Source: an uncultured bacterium
Lineage (GTDB): Bacteria; Verrucomicrobiota; Verrucomicrobiia; Limisphaerales; UBA8199
Assembly (NCBI GenBank): GCA_963749495.1
Contig: CAVVMW010000004.1
Span: forward strand, 224,001 to 288,000
Direction of reading: 5' to 3'
DNA length: 64,000 nucleotides
The first letter of the stretch is position 1; each line of letters begins with the position of its first letter. Shown here piece by piece: positions 26,001 to 32,000 of this stretch. The position numbers were made by a program.

Positions 26001-29000
26001 GCCTCTGCGGCGATGAGGACACCGGCCAAATGTCCGCCTGGTATGTCCTGAGCGCGCTCGGCCTTTATGCCGTCTGCCCGGGCGACACCAACTACGTCAT
26101 CGGCAGCCCCCTCTTCGATCGCGCCACCCTCAGCCTGGCTGGCGGCAAGACCTTCACCGTCCTGGCCAACAACAACGGGACCCAGCATCCCTACATCCAT
26201 GCCGCTTCTCTCAATGGCCGGCCTTTTAATCGCACCTACCTCTCGCACCAGGAGGTCCTGGCCGGCGGCCAACTGGCCTTCGAGATGGTCTCCGCCCCGG
26301 ACTACAAGTGGGCCACCGGCAAGGATGCCCGGCCACCGGCCGTGATGCCCGCGGAATAGGCTTCGTCAAGGCCGGCTTGCGGCTCAACCAGCAGGAGGGT
26401 GCGATGAAAACTGTCGGTCAGCCCACGGCGCCTTTTTTGCCCCGGAGGGGCTTCCGACAATAGCCCGGCGTTTCAACGCCGGGTGAGCGGACCCAAGGAC
26501 CAGGTCCGTCCCGAAGGGACGGCTGAAAGCAGGGAGTCCGCTCTCAGTCGTCCCTTCGGGACGAGCGTCCCTGTTGTGGCGTGCCCGGCGTTGAAACGCC
26601 GGGCTATTGTCAGATGTCCCTCCGGGACAAAACCCCACGAAGCCCATCGCCGAGGCTTCTAATCGCACCCCCAGCAGGAAACATTGCTTTTCCGGGAGGA
26701 AGCCGCTAGGGTACTCGACGAGACTGAGAAGGCTAGTATTATGGAATTGACGACGAGTTGGACTGAGAAGGGCATCGAGATCGGGCGACAGGAAGGCCGT
26801 GAACAGGAGCGCCAGCTTCTTCTGCGCATGTTGCGCAAGCGGTTTGGCCCCATGGAGCCCGAATGGGAGGCGCGCATCGGCCAGTTCTCGTTCGAGCAAC
26901 TCGGAGAGTTAGGCGAGGCCCTGGTGGATTTCACCTCGCGCCTGGACATCAGGAACTGGCTGGCGACCCACTGAGAATTCAACATTGCGAAACGAGAACC
27001 CGATAGCTTCGCTGACCTCGGAGTCCGGCGCCTCGGCTCAGCCCGCCGCCGCCTCGCCGGCGGCCGGTGGCCAGGGCCAGGCCTATCGCGGCCCGTTCGC
27101 GATCATGACGAGCCTCTTCTTCATGTGGGGCGTCATGAATGTCTCGAACGACATCCTGATCCCCCGCTTCAAGGAGGCCTTCGCACTCAGTTACTTCCAG
27201 GCGATGCTGGTCCAGTTCGCCTTCTTCGGCGCCTATTCGATCGGCGGCCTGGCCTATTTTTTGATCTCGATGTACTCTGGCGACCCGATCAACCGCATCG
27301 GCTACAAGAAGGGCGTTATCATCGGCCTGCTCATCTGCGCCTCGGGCAGCGTCTTGTTCTATCCGGCGGCGATGGCGGTTTCGTATCCGTTTTTTCTGAC
27401 CGCGTTGTTCATCGCCGGGCTGGGCCTGGCGATGCTGCAGATAGCCGCCAACCCGTACGTGACCATCCTGGGCTCGGAACGGACGGCCTCGGCACGGCTC
27501 AACCTCTCCCAGGCCTTCAATTCGTTCGGCACGACCATCGGCCCCATCATCGGCGGCTGGCTCATCTTCACGGTGTTCAATCGCCCCGGGGCGCACGGGG
27601 CCGACTCGGTCAAGATCCCCTACCTGGGCTTCGCCGCAGCCTATCTTTTCCTGGCGTTCTTTTTCACCGTTGCCCATGTCCCCAATTTCACGAACAAAGA
27701 GCAGGCGGTGCGCGGCCTTGGCGCTCTCAAGCACCCCCACACGGTCCTGGGGATGATCGCCATCTTCATGTACGTCGGCGGGGAGATCTCCACCGGCAGC
27801 ATCATCGTCAATTTCCTGGGCACCGAGAAGCTGGGCCATGTCCCCAGGGAGATCGCCAGCGGCTACCTGGCCTTTTATTGGGGCGGGCTGATGATCGGGC
27901 GGTTCATGGGCGCGTTTGCCCTGAGCGATATGCGCAAGGCGCTCAAGCACACGCTGGTGGTGGCCGTGCCGGTGACGGCCTTTCTGATCATCCTGTTGTT
28001 GCCGGCCGCGGGCAAGGCCCTGCACCTGGGCTGGGACCGCGCGGCGCTGCTCTGCAGCCTCCCCAATGCCCTGCGCTACGGTGTCTTCCTGGCCGTCCTG
28101 CTCGCCGCCTTTTTCGCGGGCGAATCCAGCCCGCACCGGATGCTGGCGCTCTTCAGCGGCGTCATCCTTGGCCTGATGCTCACGGGCATTGTCAGCGCCG
28201 GCGAAACGGCCAAATGGGCCATCCTGTGCGTCGGGCTGTTCTGTTCGGTGATGTGGTCCAACATCTTCTCATTGGCCATCGAGGGGCTTGGCCCTCTCAA
28301 GAGCCAGGCCTCCTCGCTCCTGGTGGTGGCCATCCTGGGCGGCGCCGTGCTGCCGCCCACGCAGGGCCGGATCGCCGACCTCTACGGCGTTCAGGTCTCC
28401 TTTGTGGTTCCGATGGCGGCCTTTGCTTACATCGCCTTTTACGGGCTCTACGGCTATCGGGCGGGGCGAAACCCGGTCGTGAGCATAGAATAGAGCCTGT
28501 ACCAACAGCCCCGCGCGTGGGGGACCTTTGTCGCGGCCTTTGTCGCAGCCTTTGTCGAACCGCGGGGCCATTGACAAAGTCGCTCGGCGCGCCGGTGCGC
28601 CAGGGGCGCCAGCGTAGCGCAGGTTTCCGACGGTGGTTTCATACTACACCTGGTGCAATTTCGTTTAGGGCTTGCCGGCTTTTTGATTTGGCGATCCGCT
28701 TGGAGTTGGCCACCCAAGCCCGCAACGCCTGCTCTTGTTGGGCCGTCAACGCGATCCACATCCGGCCGTCGGGTTGCGCTTTTCGAGCTGTCACCAGTCC
28801 GTTCTTGAGCCAATAGTGAACCACGTATTGGCTAACGGCAAACTTTTGGCTCAGTTGCTGCACCGTCAACTCGCCGGGTTGTTGCAGCACTGGGGCCGGA
28901 ATGTGGTGCTTGCACCGAATCCAGGCGACCATACTGACGGTAAAAGCTCGGCCTTTGGCGCTTCGGAGGCCTTCCTGGTTCAGGGTGAGGGCAATCTGGC

Positions 29001-32000
29001 GGTCGGTCTGTTGCTGGGCGAGTTGCCGCACTTTGCTCACGAGGGCCTCCGTGTAGCGCCAGCGGTCGGCAGCGTTAAGCGGCAGCTCGACCACGAGGTC
29101 CTCGGTGGCCTCTCCTTGCCAGCGCAAATGCAAGATCGCCTGGTGCGTTGCCGGCCGCTTTTCCAGTGTAATATCCTTGAGCAGCAGCCGCAAAATGCAC
29201 TTGCGCTGCTTGGCGGTCGTGGTGGCCGCTTGCCAGAGCCGCGGCAGGTCCTCGGCCAGCAATCGTACCTGGGCCTGTTGCTCCGCCGACAAGGGCGGGG
29301 TTTGCTTTTCCTGATATTGCCGGTATTGCTGGCGCAACCCTTCGAGTTGCTGCAAGGCGTGTTCCCAACGTTGTTCGAGCGTCGCTGCTACCAGACGGTT
29401 GGCCGGATCAACTTCCTCGAAGCGCCGTTGGGCCAACTGCCCTTCATACTCGGCTCGCTGGATTCTGAGCTGCCATTGATGCTCCAACGCCTGGTCGCGC
29501 TGTTCCACCTCCGCCACGGCAGCCAAGGCGATTTCCACCTGCGCCGGCACCAGCGCCGACAAGATCCGCCGGGCGACGGCTTCATCCAGCAGGTCGCCAC
29601 GAACCGACCAGCAGCCTTTGCCTGCCAGTTCTCGCCGCCGCCAGTTGCATTCATACCAAACCAGGCAACCGCCCTGTCCCACGTAACGCGGGGAGAGCCG
29701 GTGCCCGCACTGACCACAGACCAGCAGACCTTGCAGCAGCGCCGGCCCTTCGCGCGCCGCCGAACCGGCGGCGCCAGGGCAAGCGTTGGTTTGGTTCTGC
29801 GCCAGCCGCTGCTGGTTGGCCAGATATTCCTCCCAGGGGATGTAGCCCGGATGTTGGTTGGGCAGGTTCACTTGCCACTCGGCCAAAGGCATAGAGCGGA
29901 CGGTATTGTGCATCTGGCCAGTGGGCGAGAAGTTTTTGCAGGTTCGCCGCCGACCGAATACATAGGCCCCGGCGTAAGCCGGGTTGCGCAATAGACTCAG
30001 GACGCGGCCATGGTTCAAGCGGCCCCACCGCAACTGCCCGTTCCAGACTCCACCGTAGCTGCGCTTGGGGAAGAGCAACTGGTGCTTGGCAAAATGCTGC
30101 ACCACTCCGTAAGCGCTGGCGGTTTGCCCAAAGCTGCTGAAGACCAGGCGCACGGCGCCCTGCACCTCCTGGTCCGGGTCTAAAACGATGCCCTCGGCCT
30201 CGGCATAAACAAAGCCCACCGGCAGGGGAAAACGCAGTTGGCCTTTGCGCGCTTTGTTGAGCTTGCCGCCCTGGAGGCGGACGCGCAAGAAGTGCAGTTC
30301 GGCCTGGGACATCGTACCCTTGAGTCCCAAGAGCAAGCGGTCGTTGAAATCCCCGGGGTTGTAAGCGCCGTCTTCGTCGATGAGCAACGTGCCCGTCCAC
30401 CCACACAAGTCCACTAGCCGATGCCAGTCCAGATCCGAGCGCGACAGGCGGGAGGCCTCCAGGGCGAGAACCGCGCCCACCTTCTGTAAGGAGACCAGCG
30501 ACACCACTCGTTGGAAATCCGGTCGGTTGGCCATCTGGCTGCCCGAGATCCCCAGGTCGCCGTCCAGAGTGAGTATCCGCTCCGGCGGCCAGCCCAGTTG
30601 AAGGGCCTTGTCCCGGAGCGCGTATTGGCGCTCGGTGCTCTCCCGGTGCTGGCGCACTTGGTTGAGGGTCGACTGGCGCAGGTAAATGCAGGCCAGTTTT
30701 TGGCGATGAGTTTCCTGGACCAACTCGGTGTTCATAAGCAGCGTTGGCCGCCCAAGGCGGCGGAGGCAAGGGTGCGCCAGCCCGACGGAACGCCTGGAGC
30801 ATGGTGGCGACCACCTGCGCCACCGGCCGGGGATCGATCCGCAAGGCCGCCGGCTGCATCGCTCAGACCTTCTCCTGGCGGCGTAAGAGTTGGCGGTTGA
30901 TGTCGCATATCTGTTCCAACAGATGGCGCACGTGCTGAAAGTTTTTTATCAGGGCTTGGACCTGGGCGTGCTGCTGCTGAGAGAGGTATTGGAGTTGGGG
31001 ACGGCCGTGGGGATAGCTGACCGACAAATAGTATTTGGGACCGTGACCGCGGCCGGAGGCGCAGTGGCAACCGGGCTTGCCGCAGGGCAGGTATCGCTCG
31101 ATGAGCGAGCCGCGAACCACGCGCCGGGCCAAAGGAGGCAGGCGTTGGATCAAGGCCTGGCGTTTGCGGCGCAGGCTGGCGATGGAAGCGGGCATGATTA
31201 TCAGAACAGTTAAATAACTGTTCTGATAATGGATCGGTCAAGGGCATCTGTCAACTCCTTTCTGGTTCGAAGAGGCCGGCGGGCCGGACGCCTTCAACTG
31301 CCGCAGCAGTTGCACCAACTCCAGCAGTGCGGGCGCCGACAGCCGGCGCGCGGTCCCCGCGCTCGTCGGCACCGCCTTGTCGGTCCAGTCCTCCAAAATG
31401 GAAAAGGTGCCACCTTCTCCCCCCTCCAGAATCAGCGTGGCCTGACCGCGGTAGCGCCGGGCTTCGACCACCCGGAACCGCTCTCCGCGCCGGGGATGGA
31501 AGGGGTGGGTGATTACCGCCCATCCCAAAAGTTCACCTGCACCATGTGCAGTTCGCACTAACTGTCCCAAACCTGCTGTATCGCGGGTTTCCAAACCCGC
31601 AGGCCATCCGCAAACCGGGGGCGCTCGACATGCCGACGCCCTGCCGATTTGGAAATCGGCGATACGGCAGGTTTGGAAACCTGCGCTACAACTTTGTCAA
31701 CGGCCCTCTGTCGAACCGGCCAAGTCTCGACAAAGGCGGAAACGAGTGCTCAGCGCCGCGGGCTTTGGGCCGGCAGCGGGAGGGTCTCGCCGGTGGCGTT
31801 GGAGGTCGAGTGATAGGTGCCCGGCTGGAGACCGCTGAGGGGATCGGTGGTCTGATAATGGCGCCAGGCGAAGAAGCCTGCCAGCAGCGCCCCCGCCAGG
31901 ATCAAGACTCCCAAGGCCAGCAGGCCGCGGCGCCAATCCACTTTCGAGAGTTGGAGCATGAAGGAGTCCAGCATCCCGCGCGGCTCGTTCGAGAGTGCCG

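Follow-up and report, generated by a model that had tools for sequence, protein, structure and literature searches.

The window analysed here is a 64,000-nucleotide stretch of DNA from an uncultured bacterium of the Verrucomicrobiota, in which a DUF6788 gene and a large serine recombinase (LSR) gene lie within a mobile module that is itself inserted in a MITE. The features of this locus are as follows:

28554..28562, no strand: MITE target-site duplication GTCGAACCG (read on the + strand), with its second copy at 31710-31718
28563..28626, minus strand: right part of the host MITE
28627..31566, minus strand: mobile unit, the 2,940-bp DUF5372-DUF6788-LSR module, delimited by copy comparison
28639..30735, minus strand: LSR, 698 aa, with Resolvase, Recombinase and Zn_ribbon_recom domains
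30863..31195, minus strand: DUF6788 gene, subtype B, 110 aa (Pfam PF20586, E 3.6e-26)
31197..31230, no strand: 34-bp palindrome ATTATCAGAACAGTTA-TT-TAACTGTTCTGATAAT, a proposed operator, with 16/16 arm pairs
31226..31254, minus strand: predicted sigma-70-like promoter by consensus match, TTGACA (31254-31249), 17 nt, CATTAT (31231-31226)
31238..31566, minus strand: DUF5372 gene body (Pfam PF17342, E 1e-12)
31567..31709, minus strand: left part of the host MITE, with terminal repeat GGGCCGTTGACAAAGT and TTTCCAAA-type palindromes

The genome-wide survey's note had placed DUF6788 beside the LSR gene (28639..31195), upstream and on the same strand, and profile matches bear this out. DUF6788 is the first gene of the module operon, with the LSR gene directly downstream, and its product scores 91.8 bits against PF20586 (cut-off 27.2), covering profile positions 2-102 of 103. 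The LSR holds all of the catalytic, recombinase and zinc-ribbon domains and matches a PHROG integrase (E 8e-54). However, the serine-recombinase element with IS-like ends proved, from its junctions and copy identities, to be a 2.94-kb recombinase module within a MITE. The junctions, GGTTTGG/GACAG on the left (31567/31566) and GTCGG/AAACC on the right (28627/28626), have the same dinucleotide, GG, and removal of the module in silico restores GCAGGTTTGGAAACCTGC, which is found in 156 exact copies genome-wide (75 and 81 on the two strands), the target being an 18-bp palindrome within a 200-bp MITE. Six copies of the module are 99.72% alike inside while their MITE-derived flanks are 93.6% and 94.9% alike, and genome-wide there are six attL-type and six attR-type junctions. 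The DUF5372 body has no start codon inside the module, and the open reading frame from TTG 31594 starts in MITE DNA, but joining the module ends creates a 114-aa DUF5372 frame with an ATG that overlaps the stop codon of the recombinase gene in 6/6 copies. No circle junction was present in the assembly, nor was the joint found in the contigs of four runs, which drop rare forms. As for the host MITE, its left-type end occurs 92 times and its right-type end 63 times in the genome, and 55 of the 59 end pairs span 168-205 bp; the target-site duplication matches at 9/9 positions around the window MITE, and at least 8 of 9 positions match in 40/59 pairs, compared with 1.6% for randomly paired flanks. 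The DUF5372-DUF6788-LSR trio occurs in 73/80 related loci from several phyla.

A six-frame search of the genome returned 47 DUF6788 matches (46 of them above the cut-off), rather than the 43 genes counted previously, and the 47 fall into eight sequence subtypes. Copy numbers, partners and orientation are:

Subtype A, 8 copies: IS1380, same strand
Subtype B, 6 copies: LSR, same strand
Subtypes C, 3 copies, and D, 3 copies: IS4-superfamily-like, same strand
Subtypes E, 12 copies, and G, 1 copy: ISKra4, same strand
Subtypes F, 9 copies, and F2, 2 copies: IS4, divergent
Subtype H, 3 copies: IS4/IS701-like (Pfam DDE_5), divergent

The partner gene is at least 50% intact in 44/47 copies (BLAST, at least 95% identity) and in 46/47 once a 91%-identical C copy and the single G copy are counted, leaving only a truncated A copy at C4:395688 with no adjoining partner. 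The association with transposase and recombinase genes seen earlier in 32/43 copies is therefore upheld and extended, while the 11 copies thought to have no recombinase neighbour are, because 46/47 keep a partner, gene-calling misses, the transposases being frameshifted or modelled poorly. Of the eight element types, six (A, C, D, E and F, plus the B-carrying MITE) have clear ends in the form of terminal inverted repeats, flank duplications or both, with the ends of H and F2 being less clear.

Outside this genome DUF6788 is also partnered with IS1634, IS66, Tn5-like elements and, possibly, a tyrosine recombinase, and the loci sampled there agree in direction with the survey's tallies across bacterial genomes (7,414 with DUF6788). 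The previous description of the partner classes as unrelated stands where the serine recombinase is compared with the DDE enzymes, but IS4, IS701, IS1380 and IS1634 are distantly related to one another, and transposase D gives weak matches to IS4, IS701, IS1380 and IS982 models alike. In a DUF6788 tree of 23 rows, the partner labels need 10 changes where the minimum is 7, well-supported branches require the ISKra4, IS4-like and IS701 labels to have arisen at least twice each, and well-supported clades mix partner classes. The family is large: the 8,000 candidates scored fall into at least 5,043 clusters when grouped at 90% identity, and there are 1,070 clusters at 50% identity. The database sources compared label its members solely "hypothetical" or "DUF6788", and our literature search found no paper that mentions it. 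DUF6788 could be a selfish passenger, or could act on the host (in addiction or anti-defence, for example), and exert no control over the element, and in a phylum sample 12/28 loci have no recognisable enzyme gene inside 1.5 kb, as a passenger might. Yet several of these 12 are broken copies or hold long unassigned ORFs, the gene is retained in 46/47 copies here and in 73/80 LSR-type loci, and it lies promoter-proximal in the enzyme operon or in a common divergent control region, which makes a passenger very unlikely.

We remodelled the window protein with AlphaFold using 67 sequences (pLDDT 95.1) and recovered the helical hairpin and three-stranded sheet previously modelled from six sequences at pLDDT 87, with a helix at residues 5-17, strands at 30-36, 51-59 and 67-71, and a long helix at 73-105. 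The window protein, which is identical in all six subtype B copies, has a CGKPGCHC...H knuckle; this Cys/His feature had been ascribed to most subtypes but is present in four of eight (A-D) and in 20/47 copies. Identities of 17-30% between subtypes were reported before; our values are 19-38% identity to the window protein. The fold has no solved look-alike, as the survey had found: the best Foldseek match in the PDB has E = 1.0, structure comparison (VIA) gave only generic helical hairpins (best Z = 7.0), and a PDB profile search reached E = 0.088 at best, all of which count against reading the protein as a repressor. Searches of Pfam, NCBIfam, PHROG and the PDB returned zero matches to any DNA-binding family.

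Each of the eight DUF6788 subtypes has its own palindrome at or just ahead of the gene start, and in the window it stops 1 nt ahead of the DUF6788 ATG. At least nine arm pairs within -70..+25 were found at 23/34 non-redundant loci, and at 15/25 in other genomes alone, while among controls the share was 3.7% for dinucleotide shuffles (n = 680) and 10.1% for random windows from the same loci (n = 308); the 11/34 upstream windows that have no such palindrome count against a repressor. The half-sites occur once per element and none are at terminal repeats. In the LSR type, an inverted repeat TCAGACCA-N10-TGGTCTGA is kept at 65 distinct related sites from several phyla, with mirrored positions 1, 2 and 4-8 complementary in 52-65 of the 65 and one symmetric double change, C-G to A-T, at three sites including the window. 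Two properties of this site weigh against the repressor reading, namely that it is mostly conserved with little co-variation, and that mirrored position 3 is non-complementary in 30/65 sites, being an A.C mismatch in 20/65.

The inverted repeat in the window overlaps the predicted promoter of the DUF6788-LSR operon, with the -10 extending into the left arm and the -35 overlapping the end of the DUF5372 ORF, and this is the sole such promoter site within 28500-31800. The same geometry recurs at related LSR-type loci, where the repeat begins at the final base of a -10-like hexamer, 17 nt past TTGACA/TTGAAA; the -35 scores at least 4 in 60/69 loci, the -10 in 50/69, and both hexamers at least 4 of 6 in 41/69. 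Across all types, promoter-like sites were detected in 10/34 upstream windows compared with 3.6% of 617 control windows; their absence from 24/34, judged by an E. coli-type consensus that may not be that of the hosts, again counts against the repressor. These sites could also be read as RNA or single-strand DNA hairpins that serve translation control or recombination, with DUF6788 binding RNA or being unconnected to them. A right arm that abuts or overlaps the start codon at many loci (distance -1 in 37/78 LSR-type sites) would suit a hairpin, but most of the left arm would be missing from the predicted LSR-type transcript, which favours a DNA site, and the A.C mismatch would weaken a hairpin and a protein site equally. 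We consider a hairpin quite unlikely.

On sequence comparison, the type of site tracks the DUF6788 clade rather than the partner enzyme. Subtype A, which is linked to IS1380, shares 47% identity with a DUF6788 adjoining a tyrosine recombinase (L009) and 62% with a broken copy that has no partner (L017), and half-site CCGATAGC is common to all three. Likewise, the clade of F, F2, H and locus L024 (support 100/100) includes both IS4 and IS4/IS701-like partners, and a GTATATATAC core is common to all of its members. In a second LSR element of the same genome, a 246-aa helix-turn-helix protein lies between DUF5372 and LSR, occupying the position of DUF6788 in this sister element. The neighbour counts, the tree and the co-travelling palindrome support the survey's view of DUF6788 as a portable accessory, probably a regulator, of different classes of mobile element.

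In the co-oriented ISKra4 elements, this accessory is not free-standing as had been assumed. In both E and G, whose transposases score 242 and 239 bits against the NCBI ISKra4 cut-off of 205, the transposase is read in the -1 frame relative to the DUF6788 ORF, and the two overlap (by 136 nt in E and 244 nt in G) with an A9 run within the overlap. This run is present in 12/12 E copies, and ISKra4 homology in E starts directly past it, 75 nt ahead of the first possible start codon; no -1 overlap with a slippery run was found for B, A or D. Together, frame overlap, A9 run and homology start indicate that DUF6788 is here the first ORF of a -1 frameshift transposase, with a fused product predicted. 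Transposases of the ISMich2 group are similarly restored from two ORFs by a -1 frameshift (Guerillot et al. 2014, PMC3942029). With the domain inside the transposase itself, a role in the transposition complex would fit equally well, and we count this against a repressor, as we do the number of in-frame fused relatives (none for subtype E, four for subtype B). In phylum relatives L012, L023, L025, L027 and L036, DUF6788 is divergent beside a full-length ISKra4 transposase.

Such a fusion, and the constant adjacency of the DUF6788 and enzyme genes, could instead point to an enzyme-contacting cofactor, one that aids synapsis or target choice or that acts as a serine recombinase directionality factor, with the palindrome merely a promoter; in the model, the long C-terminal helix (73-105) could serve as the contact surface. 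However, the partners range from a serine recombinase through several DDE families to, possibly, a tyrosine recombinase, and their unrelated folds and chemistry make a common protein-protein surface improbable, while a cofactor fits poorly with palindromes that follow the DUF6788 clade or with substitution by a helix-turn-helix protein. This cofactor is, in our judgement, unlikely. A directionality factor in particular was rejected, as DUF6788 is not restricted to integrases and adjoins IS1380, ISKra4, IS4, IS701-like, IS1634 and IS66 transposases.

From what was directly observed, namely the position of the gene inside the elements, the palindromes and their conservation, and the frame layout, we infer with modest confidence, a little better than even, that DUF6788 and its palindrome form a portable autorepressor and operator restraining the element's enzyme. 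DUF6788 would be a small, probably dimeric protein with sequence-specific DNA binding, its target being a palindromic operator on or just past the promoter of its own gene. With same-strand partners (LSR, IS1380 and the IS4-like D), repression of this promoter would also limit the enzyme, while with divergent partners (IS4 in F, IS4/IS701-like in H, and many ISKra4) a palindrome between the start codons could control both genes. Since such a repressor would act in trans on all copies with the same operator, enzyme levels would fall as copies increase, a form of copy-number control. The gene and operator may have moved as a cassette among unrelated element classes, and in co-oriented ISKra4 elements the same domain would additionally be joined to the transposase by the -1 frameshift at A9. 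More tentatively, and with somewhat less than even confidence, the DUF6788-palindrome pair may be an exchangeable repressor-operator cassette built on a new DNA-binding fold of zinc knuckle, three-strand sheet and helical hairpin, captured repeatedly for copy-number self-restraint by at least seven enzymes (IS4, IS701-like, IS1380, IS1634, IS66, ISKra4, LSR and perhaps tyrosine recombinases).

This reading gives a large uncharacterised family a testable job and closes a gap in the annotation and understanding of insertion sequences. Several IS families assumed to be single-ORF include two-gene members. If true, self-restraint modules traded between unrelated mobile elements would be a new principle, and a new DNA-binding fold would be gained with its cognate sites ready-made. 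The three-gene LSR module of 2.9 kb, with a defined 18-bp palindromic target and a proposed built-in switch, is compact enough to be of interest for genome engineering. New here are the subtype palindromes, the clade-tracking candidate operators, the helix-turn-helix replacement, the MITE-targeted module and the identity of DUF6788 as the ISKra4 first ORF.

Among known systems, OrfA of the IS3 family (IS911, IS2) and InsA of IS1 are small first ORFs that act as lone regulators and, through a -1 frameshift within an A-rich run, are also fused to the transposase, and the E and G elements have this same layout. OrfA and InsA, however, have helix-turn-helix or zinc-finger and leucine-zipper domains and serve one IS family each, whereas DUF6788 has a fold with no PDB match, accompanies at least seven enzyme classes, and is found unfused, divergent and with a serine recombinase too. 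TnpR of Tn3/gamma-delta is an element-borne repressor that controls both of two divergent genes from the res site between them, in a similar manner to the F and H palindromes between two start codons; TnpR is the recombinase itself, while DUF6788 is separate, small and has no catalytic domain. Tn4451/Tn4453 (TnpX) and Tn5397 (TndX) are moved by large serine recombinases, and resemble our module in having the LSR as the only enzyme, two-base junction identity and features that would work only when circular; the module differs in being 2.94 kb and cargo-free, in its DUF5372 and DUF6788 genes, and in targeting a MITE palindrome. Serine integrase directionality factors such as Bxb1 gp47 and phiC31 gp3 are likewise small proteins encoded beside the integrase, but DUF6788 also accompanies DDE transposases, which face no directionality problem, and would be expressed from the predicted promoter of the integrated state. 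Finally, the two-ORF -1 frameshift layout is already published for the ISMich2 group (ISKra4 / p-MULT 4 family), and we place E and G in the ISKra4 family, but in the part of that report available the opening ORF is not set apart as a family of its own common to other element classes (PMC3942029), and the phylum relatives differ further by carrying DUF6788 divergent from a full-length ISKra4 transposase.

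The window element carries three genes in a row, the middle of which encodes a small protein of the DUF6788 family and the last a large serine recombinase (LSR):

31238-31594 (as listed), minus strand: DUF5372 ORF, first of the three genes
30863-31195, minus strand: DUF6788 gene, 110 aa, PF20586
28639-30735, minus strand: LSR, 698 aa, with Resolvase, Recombinase and Zn_ribbon_recom domains

NCBIfam and PHROGs gave no name for the window DUF6788 protein, while PHROGs classed the recombinase as an integrase. We searched the window's own assembly (11.4 Mb) in six frames and detected 47 PF20586 matches, of which 46 exceeded the cut-off. 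These fell into eight sequence subtypes, and BLAST of the flanks placed each in its own repeat unit.

DUF6788 types in the window's own genome: repeat unit, copies, partner enzyme and its orientation
A: 2,286 bp; 5 full and 3 partial copies; IS1380, same strand
B (window): 3,144 bp; 6 copies; LSR, same strand
C: 1,975 bp; 3 copies; IS4-superfamily-like (weak matches), same strand
D: 2,507 bp; 3 copies; IS4-superfamily-like (weak matches), same strand
E: 1,832 bp; 12 copies; ISKra4 (242 bits, cut-off 205), same strand
F: 1,894 bp; 9 copies; IS4, divergent
F2: 1,921 bp; 2 copies; IS4, divergent
H: 2,024 bp; 3 copies; IS4/IS701-like (Pfam DDE_5), divergent
G: single copy (1); ISKra4 (239 bits), same strand

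Clear terminal inverted repeats and/or target duplications were seen for A, C, D, E, F and the MITE bearing B, with the element ends of H and F2 less clear than those of the other types. The DUF6788 gene lay invariably within the repeat units, and at least half of the partner gene was kept in 44/47 copies (BLAST, ≥95% identity), or in 46/47 once a 91%-identical C copy and G are added. The genome-wide survey's note had described DUF6788 as a portable gene beside unrelated transposases and recombinases, and its adjacency to such genes is confirmed and tightened here, because 46/47 copies keep a partner, always inside repeat units. The word 'unrelated' holds for the serine recombinase versus the DDE enzymes but not for the DDE families among themselves, which are distant kin; the D transposase matched the IS4, IS701, IS1380 and IS982 models, each weakly.

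Several elements had peculiarities of their own. The IS1380 transposase of element A was split over three frames in the representative copy (G000:C23:704028-706313, 647-2054), and the A copies are ~99.5% alike; genuine frameshifts or assembly errors common to the copies might each account for this. In element C, too, the transposase was split, over two frames. Two C copies on different contigs (G000:C12:501634 and C25:45803) had swapped flanks. All nine copies read of the IS4 element F (e.g. G000:C22:402609-404502) had palindromic CGCCC-N5-GGGCG targets with a 5-bp duplication.

An AlphaFold model of the window DUF6788 protein, built from 67 sequences (pLDDT 95.1, pTM 0.78), showed a short N-terminal helix, three strands bearing a CxxxxCxC...H knuckle and a 33-residue C-terminal helix, with C38, C43, C45 and H51 at least 90% conserved across the 67-sequence alignment. 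The knuckle had been ascribed to most subtypes, which our data do not bear out, as four of the eight here lack it entirely. The absence of a solved look-alike did stand (Foldseek against the PDB, best E = 1.0). Likewise, a wide VIA-align search returned only generic helical hairpins and prefoldin-like chains (best Z = 7.0), the best E in a PDB sequence profile search was 0.088, with DUF6788 clusters set aside no named neighbour in the ESM Atlas exceeded 0.76, and hhalign of DUF6788 against an IS66 transposase gave a probability of 0.2.

Immediately upstream of the window DUF6788 gene is a perfect 16+2+16 palindrome (31197-31230), which ends one base before the ATG. Each other subtype has its own, different palindrome in the same place, which in F and H is between the divergent start codons. 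Palindromes with at least 9 arm pairs were present in the -70..+25 region at 23/34 non-redundant loci, and at 15/25 when loci from other genomes were taken alone. The corresponding rates in the controls were 3.7% among 680 dinucleotide shuffles and 10.1% among 308 windows drawn at random from these loci. The arms occur once per element and are absent from the terminal repeats. One locus in another genome (G007:C2:286143-289397, about 1412-1467) had an unusually long palindrome of 27 arm pairs and 56 bp, which separates a DUF6788 gene from its divergent ISKra4 transposase.

The palindrome at the DUF6788 start, a proposed operator, appears to track the DUF6788 protein and not the partner enzyme. 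The subtype A protein, with an IS1380 partner, is 47% identical to one adjoining a tyrosine recombinase (L009) and 62% identical to one from a broken, partner-less locus (L017), and the half-site CCGATAGC is common to the palindromes of all three. The well-supported clade of F, F2, H and the locus L024 (support 100/100) includes both IS4 and IS4/IS701-like partners, yet the core GTATATATAC is present throughout, and a further clade of three loci (L025, L026, L027; support 99/97) has GTAGCA...TGCTAC in common. A less likely role for DUF6788 is that of a cofactor of the enzyme. On a 23-row DUF6788 tree, partner labels required 10 changes (minimum 7, shuffled mean 13.6), and well-supported branches imply no fewer than two origins for each of the ISKra4, IS4-like and IS701 labels. 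This tree leaves aside L034, which nearly duplicates L013, as well as L037, the LSR-type related loci and every locus without a recognised partner.

We also scanned species genomes for the LSR type and collected 80 loci with 53-70% identity to the window DUF6788, mostly from Acidobacteriota and also from Opitutia, Limisphaerales, Armatimonadota, Myxococcota, Gammaproteobacteria, Desulfobacteraceae and others. DUF5372, DUF6788 and LSR shared order and strand in 73/80, and in the remaining seven, mostly at contig ends, one or two of the trio were undetected. The upstream layout was conserved, with a -35 element (TTGACA/TTGAAA), 17 nt and a TAnnnT hexamer whose last T is the first base of TCAGACCA-N10-TGGTCTGA. 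Scored against an E. coli-type consensus, which may not be that of the hosts, at least 4/6 positions matched for the -35 in 60/69 distinct sequences, for the -10 in 50/69 and for both in 41/69; by the same consensus, with the same reservation for its host, the window had its sole sigma-70-like site in 3.3 kb at the palindrome. Of the mirrored positions in the repeat, 1, 2 and 4-8 were complementary in 52-65 of 65 sites and 3 in just 35/65, and three sites including the window showed a symmetric C-G to A-T change at one position. An RNA hairpin is a possible reading of such a palindrome, but the LSR-type repeat looks more like a DNA operator, because a transcript from the predicted promoter would begin inside its left arm.

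DUF5372 had eight matches in the genome, namely the six B copies and two others belonging to a second kind of serine-recombinase element. One of these (G000:C18:71500-80000, 3886-7165) encodes DUF5372, a 246-aa helix-turn-helix protein and a 650-aa LSR, without DUF6788; the other is at G000:C6:408164-408394. The 246-aa protein (C18:75430) has HTH_29/28/23/32 domains, and given the gene order DUF5372, helix-turn-helix protein, LSR, a classical DNA-binding protein fills the DUF6788 slot at this locus. DUF6788 may possibly be a passenger gene; however, our best reading is that it is a portable autorepressor carried with its operator, predicted to bind there and repress; the evidence from position, comparison and conservation fits this reading.

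An even sample of 201 genomes from the phylum included 24 with DUF6788 (own genome counted), and their copy number was patchy (17, 7 and 6 in three genomes). Examination of 1.5 kb either side of 28 loci from 23 other genomes revealed a recognisable neighbour at 16: ISKra4 (6), IS1634 (2), IS66 DDE (2), IS66 TnpB (1), IS701-like (1), Tn5-like IS4 (1), IS4 (1), tyrosine recombinase (1) and a nearby IS200-like gene (1). At the other 12 no partner was recognised within this distance, several being broken copies or having long unassigned ORFs.

In the ISKra4 types E and G, the open transposase frame extends well upstream of the first start codon it contains and, in the -1 frame, shares 136 nt (E) or 244 nt (G) with the DUF6788 ORF. 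Both overlaps include an A9 run (12/12 E copies), and in E homology to the NCBI ISKra4 model begins at nt 434, immediately past this run and 75 nt ahead of the first start codon. A passage in Guerillot et al. 2014 (PMC3942029) describes ISMich2 group transposases as two ORFs restored by a -1 frameshift. Taken together, these point to DUF6788 in the E/G class being the OrfA part of an OrfA/OrfAB pair, and in our best reading it would there also supply the N-terminal part of the transposase. A, B and D had no comparable overlap containing a slippery run. Fused relatives of subtype E were not found, a search that is weak evidence for absence, and for subtype B we found four longer proteins, one with a Resolvase domain. 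We rejected the proposal that DUF6788 is the missing N-terminus of ISKra4 transposases, as it has no match to the NCBI ISKra4 model; elsewhere in the phylum, DUF6788 is a separate divergent gene beside the same transposase family.

The ends of the 3,144-bp B repeat are GGGCCGTTGACAAAGT, and identical ends bound a MITE family (~200 bp) marked by four TTTCCAAA/TTTGGAAA palindromes and by flank duplications of 9-10 bp. The window has one copy of this MITE:

21005-21205: MITE copy, 9/9 flank duplication CTGGGGTTT

Genome-wide, 92 left-type and 63 right-type ends formed 59 pairs, 55 of them 168-205 bp long, and at least 8/9 flanking bases were duplicated in 40/59 pairs versus 1.6% for randomly paired flanks. 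Serine recombinases make no such flank duplication, and we rejected the recombinase as their source: the 9-bp duplications are those of the MITE, whose ends in the six B copies are far more diverged than the module. No element with these ends and a matching transposase was found genome-wide. Identity among the six B copies is 99.72% in the inner 2,940 bp but just 93.6% and 94.9% in the MITE-derived 142 bp and 62 bp, and for this reason the 2.94-kb module (28627-31566) appears to have entered six MITE copies that had diverged beforehand. It is placed at the centre of the MITE palindrome GCAGGTTT-GG-AAACCTGC, with GG at both junctions, and an exact match to this palindrome occurs 156 times in the genome (75 on one strand, 81 on the other).

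DUF5372 has its start codon at the opposite end of the module, where it overlaps the stop of the recombinase gene (31238-31594 and 28627-28650). Joining the module ends gives a 114-aa DUF5372 ORF with its ATG over the recombinase stop in 6/6 copies, so that DUF5372 would be complete only in a circle. The assembly contained no circle junction, and contigs of four DNA runs, which left parts without cover, contained no joint across the module. The structure modelled for DUF5372 (pLDDT 84) combines a small SH3/KOW-like barrel with a helix and matched nothing significantly in the PDB (best E = 0.053).

Flank duplications were exchanged between two B copies that lie inverted at a distance of 40 kb (G000:C14:154269-157411 and C14:193716-196860), an indication that an inversion took place between the two. 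A 366-aa IS1182/IS5-like transposase between MITE ends was considered as the MITE's own enzyme and rejected, since its element has its own inverted repeats and 4-bp duplication and is thus a nested insertion. This IS (1,364 bp, ends GAGCCTTTTGCAAAA, duplication TGCT; 8 copies in all, e.g. G000:C6:180300-183400 and G000:C15:467550-469270) occupied the same position within the MITE in the copies examined, once as a tandem pair, and may either target that site or ride with the MITE.

The literature searched named neither DUF6788 (PF20586) nor DUF5372 (PF17342), and the database sources searched carried no functional name for DUF6788. The passages found of 'IS4 family goes genomic' (PMC2266710) describe no small ORF, and the further literature searched gave no account of such a gene; ISfinder and Supplementary table S1 of PMC3942029 may list such ORFs. 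What this analysis adds is the palindrome controls, the promoter geometry and the argument that the operator follows the protein, together with the helix-turn-helix replacement, the frameshift layout in E/G and the anatomy of the module within the MITE.
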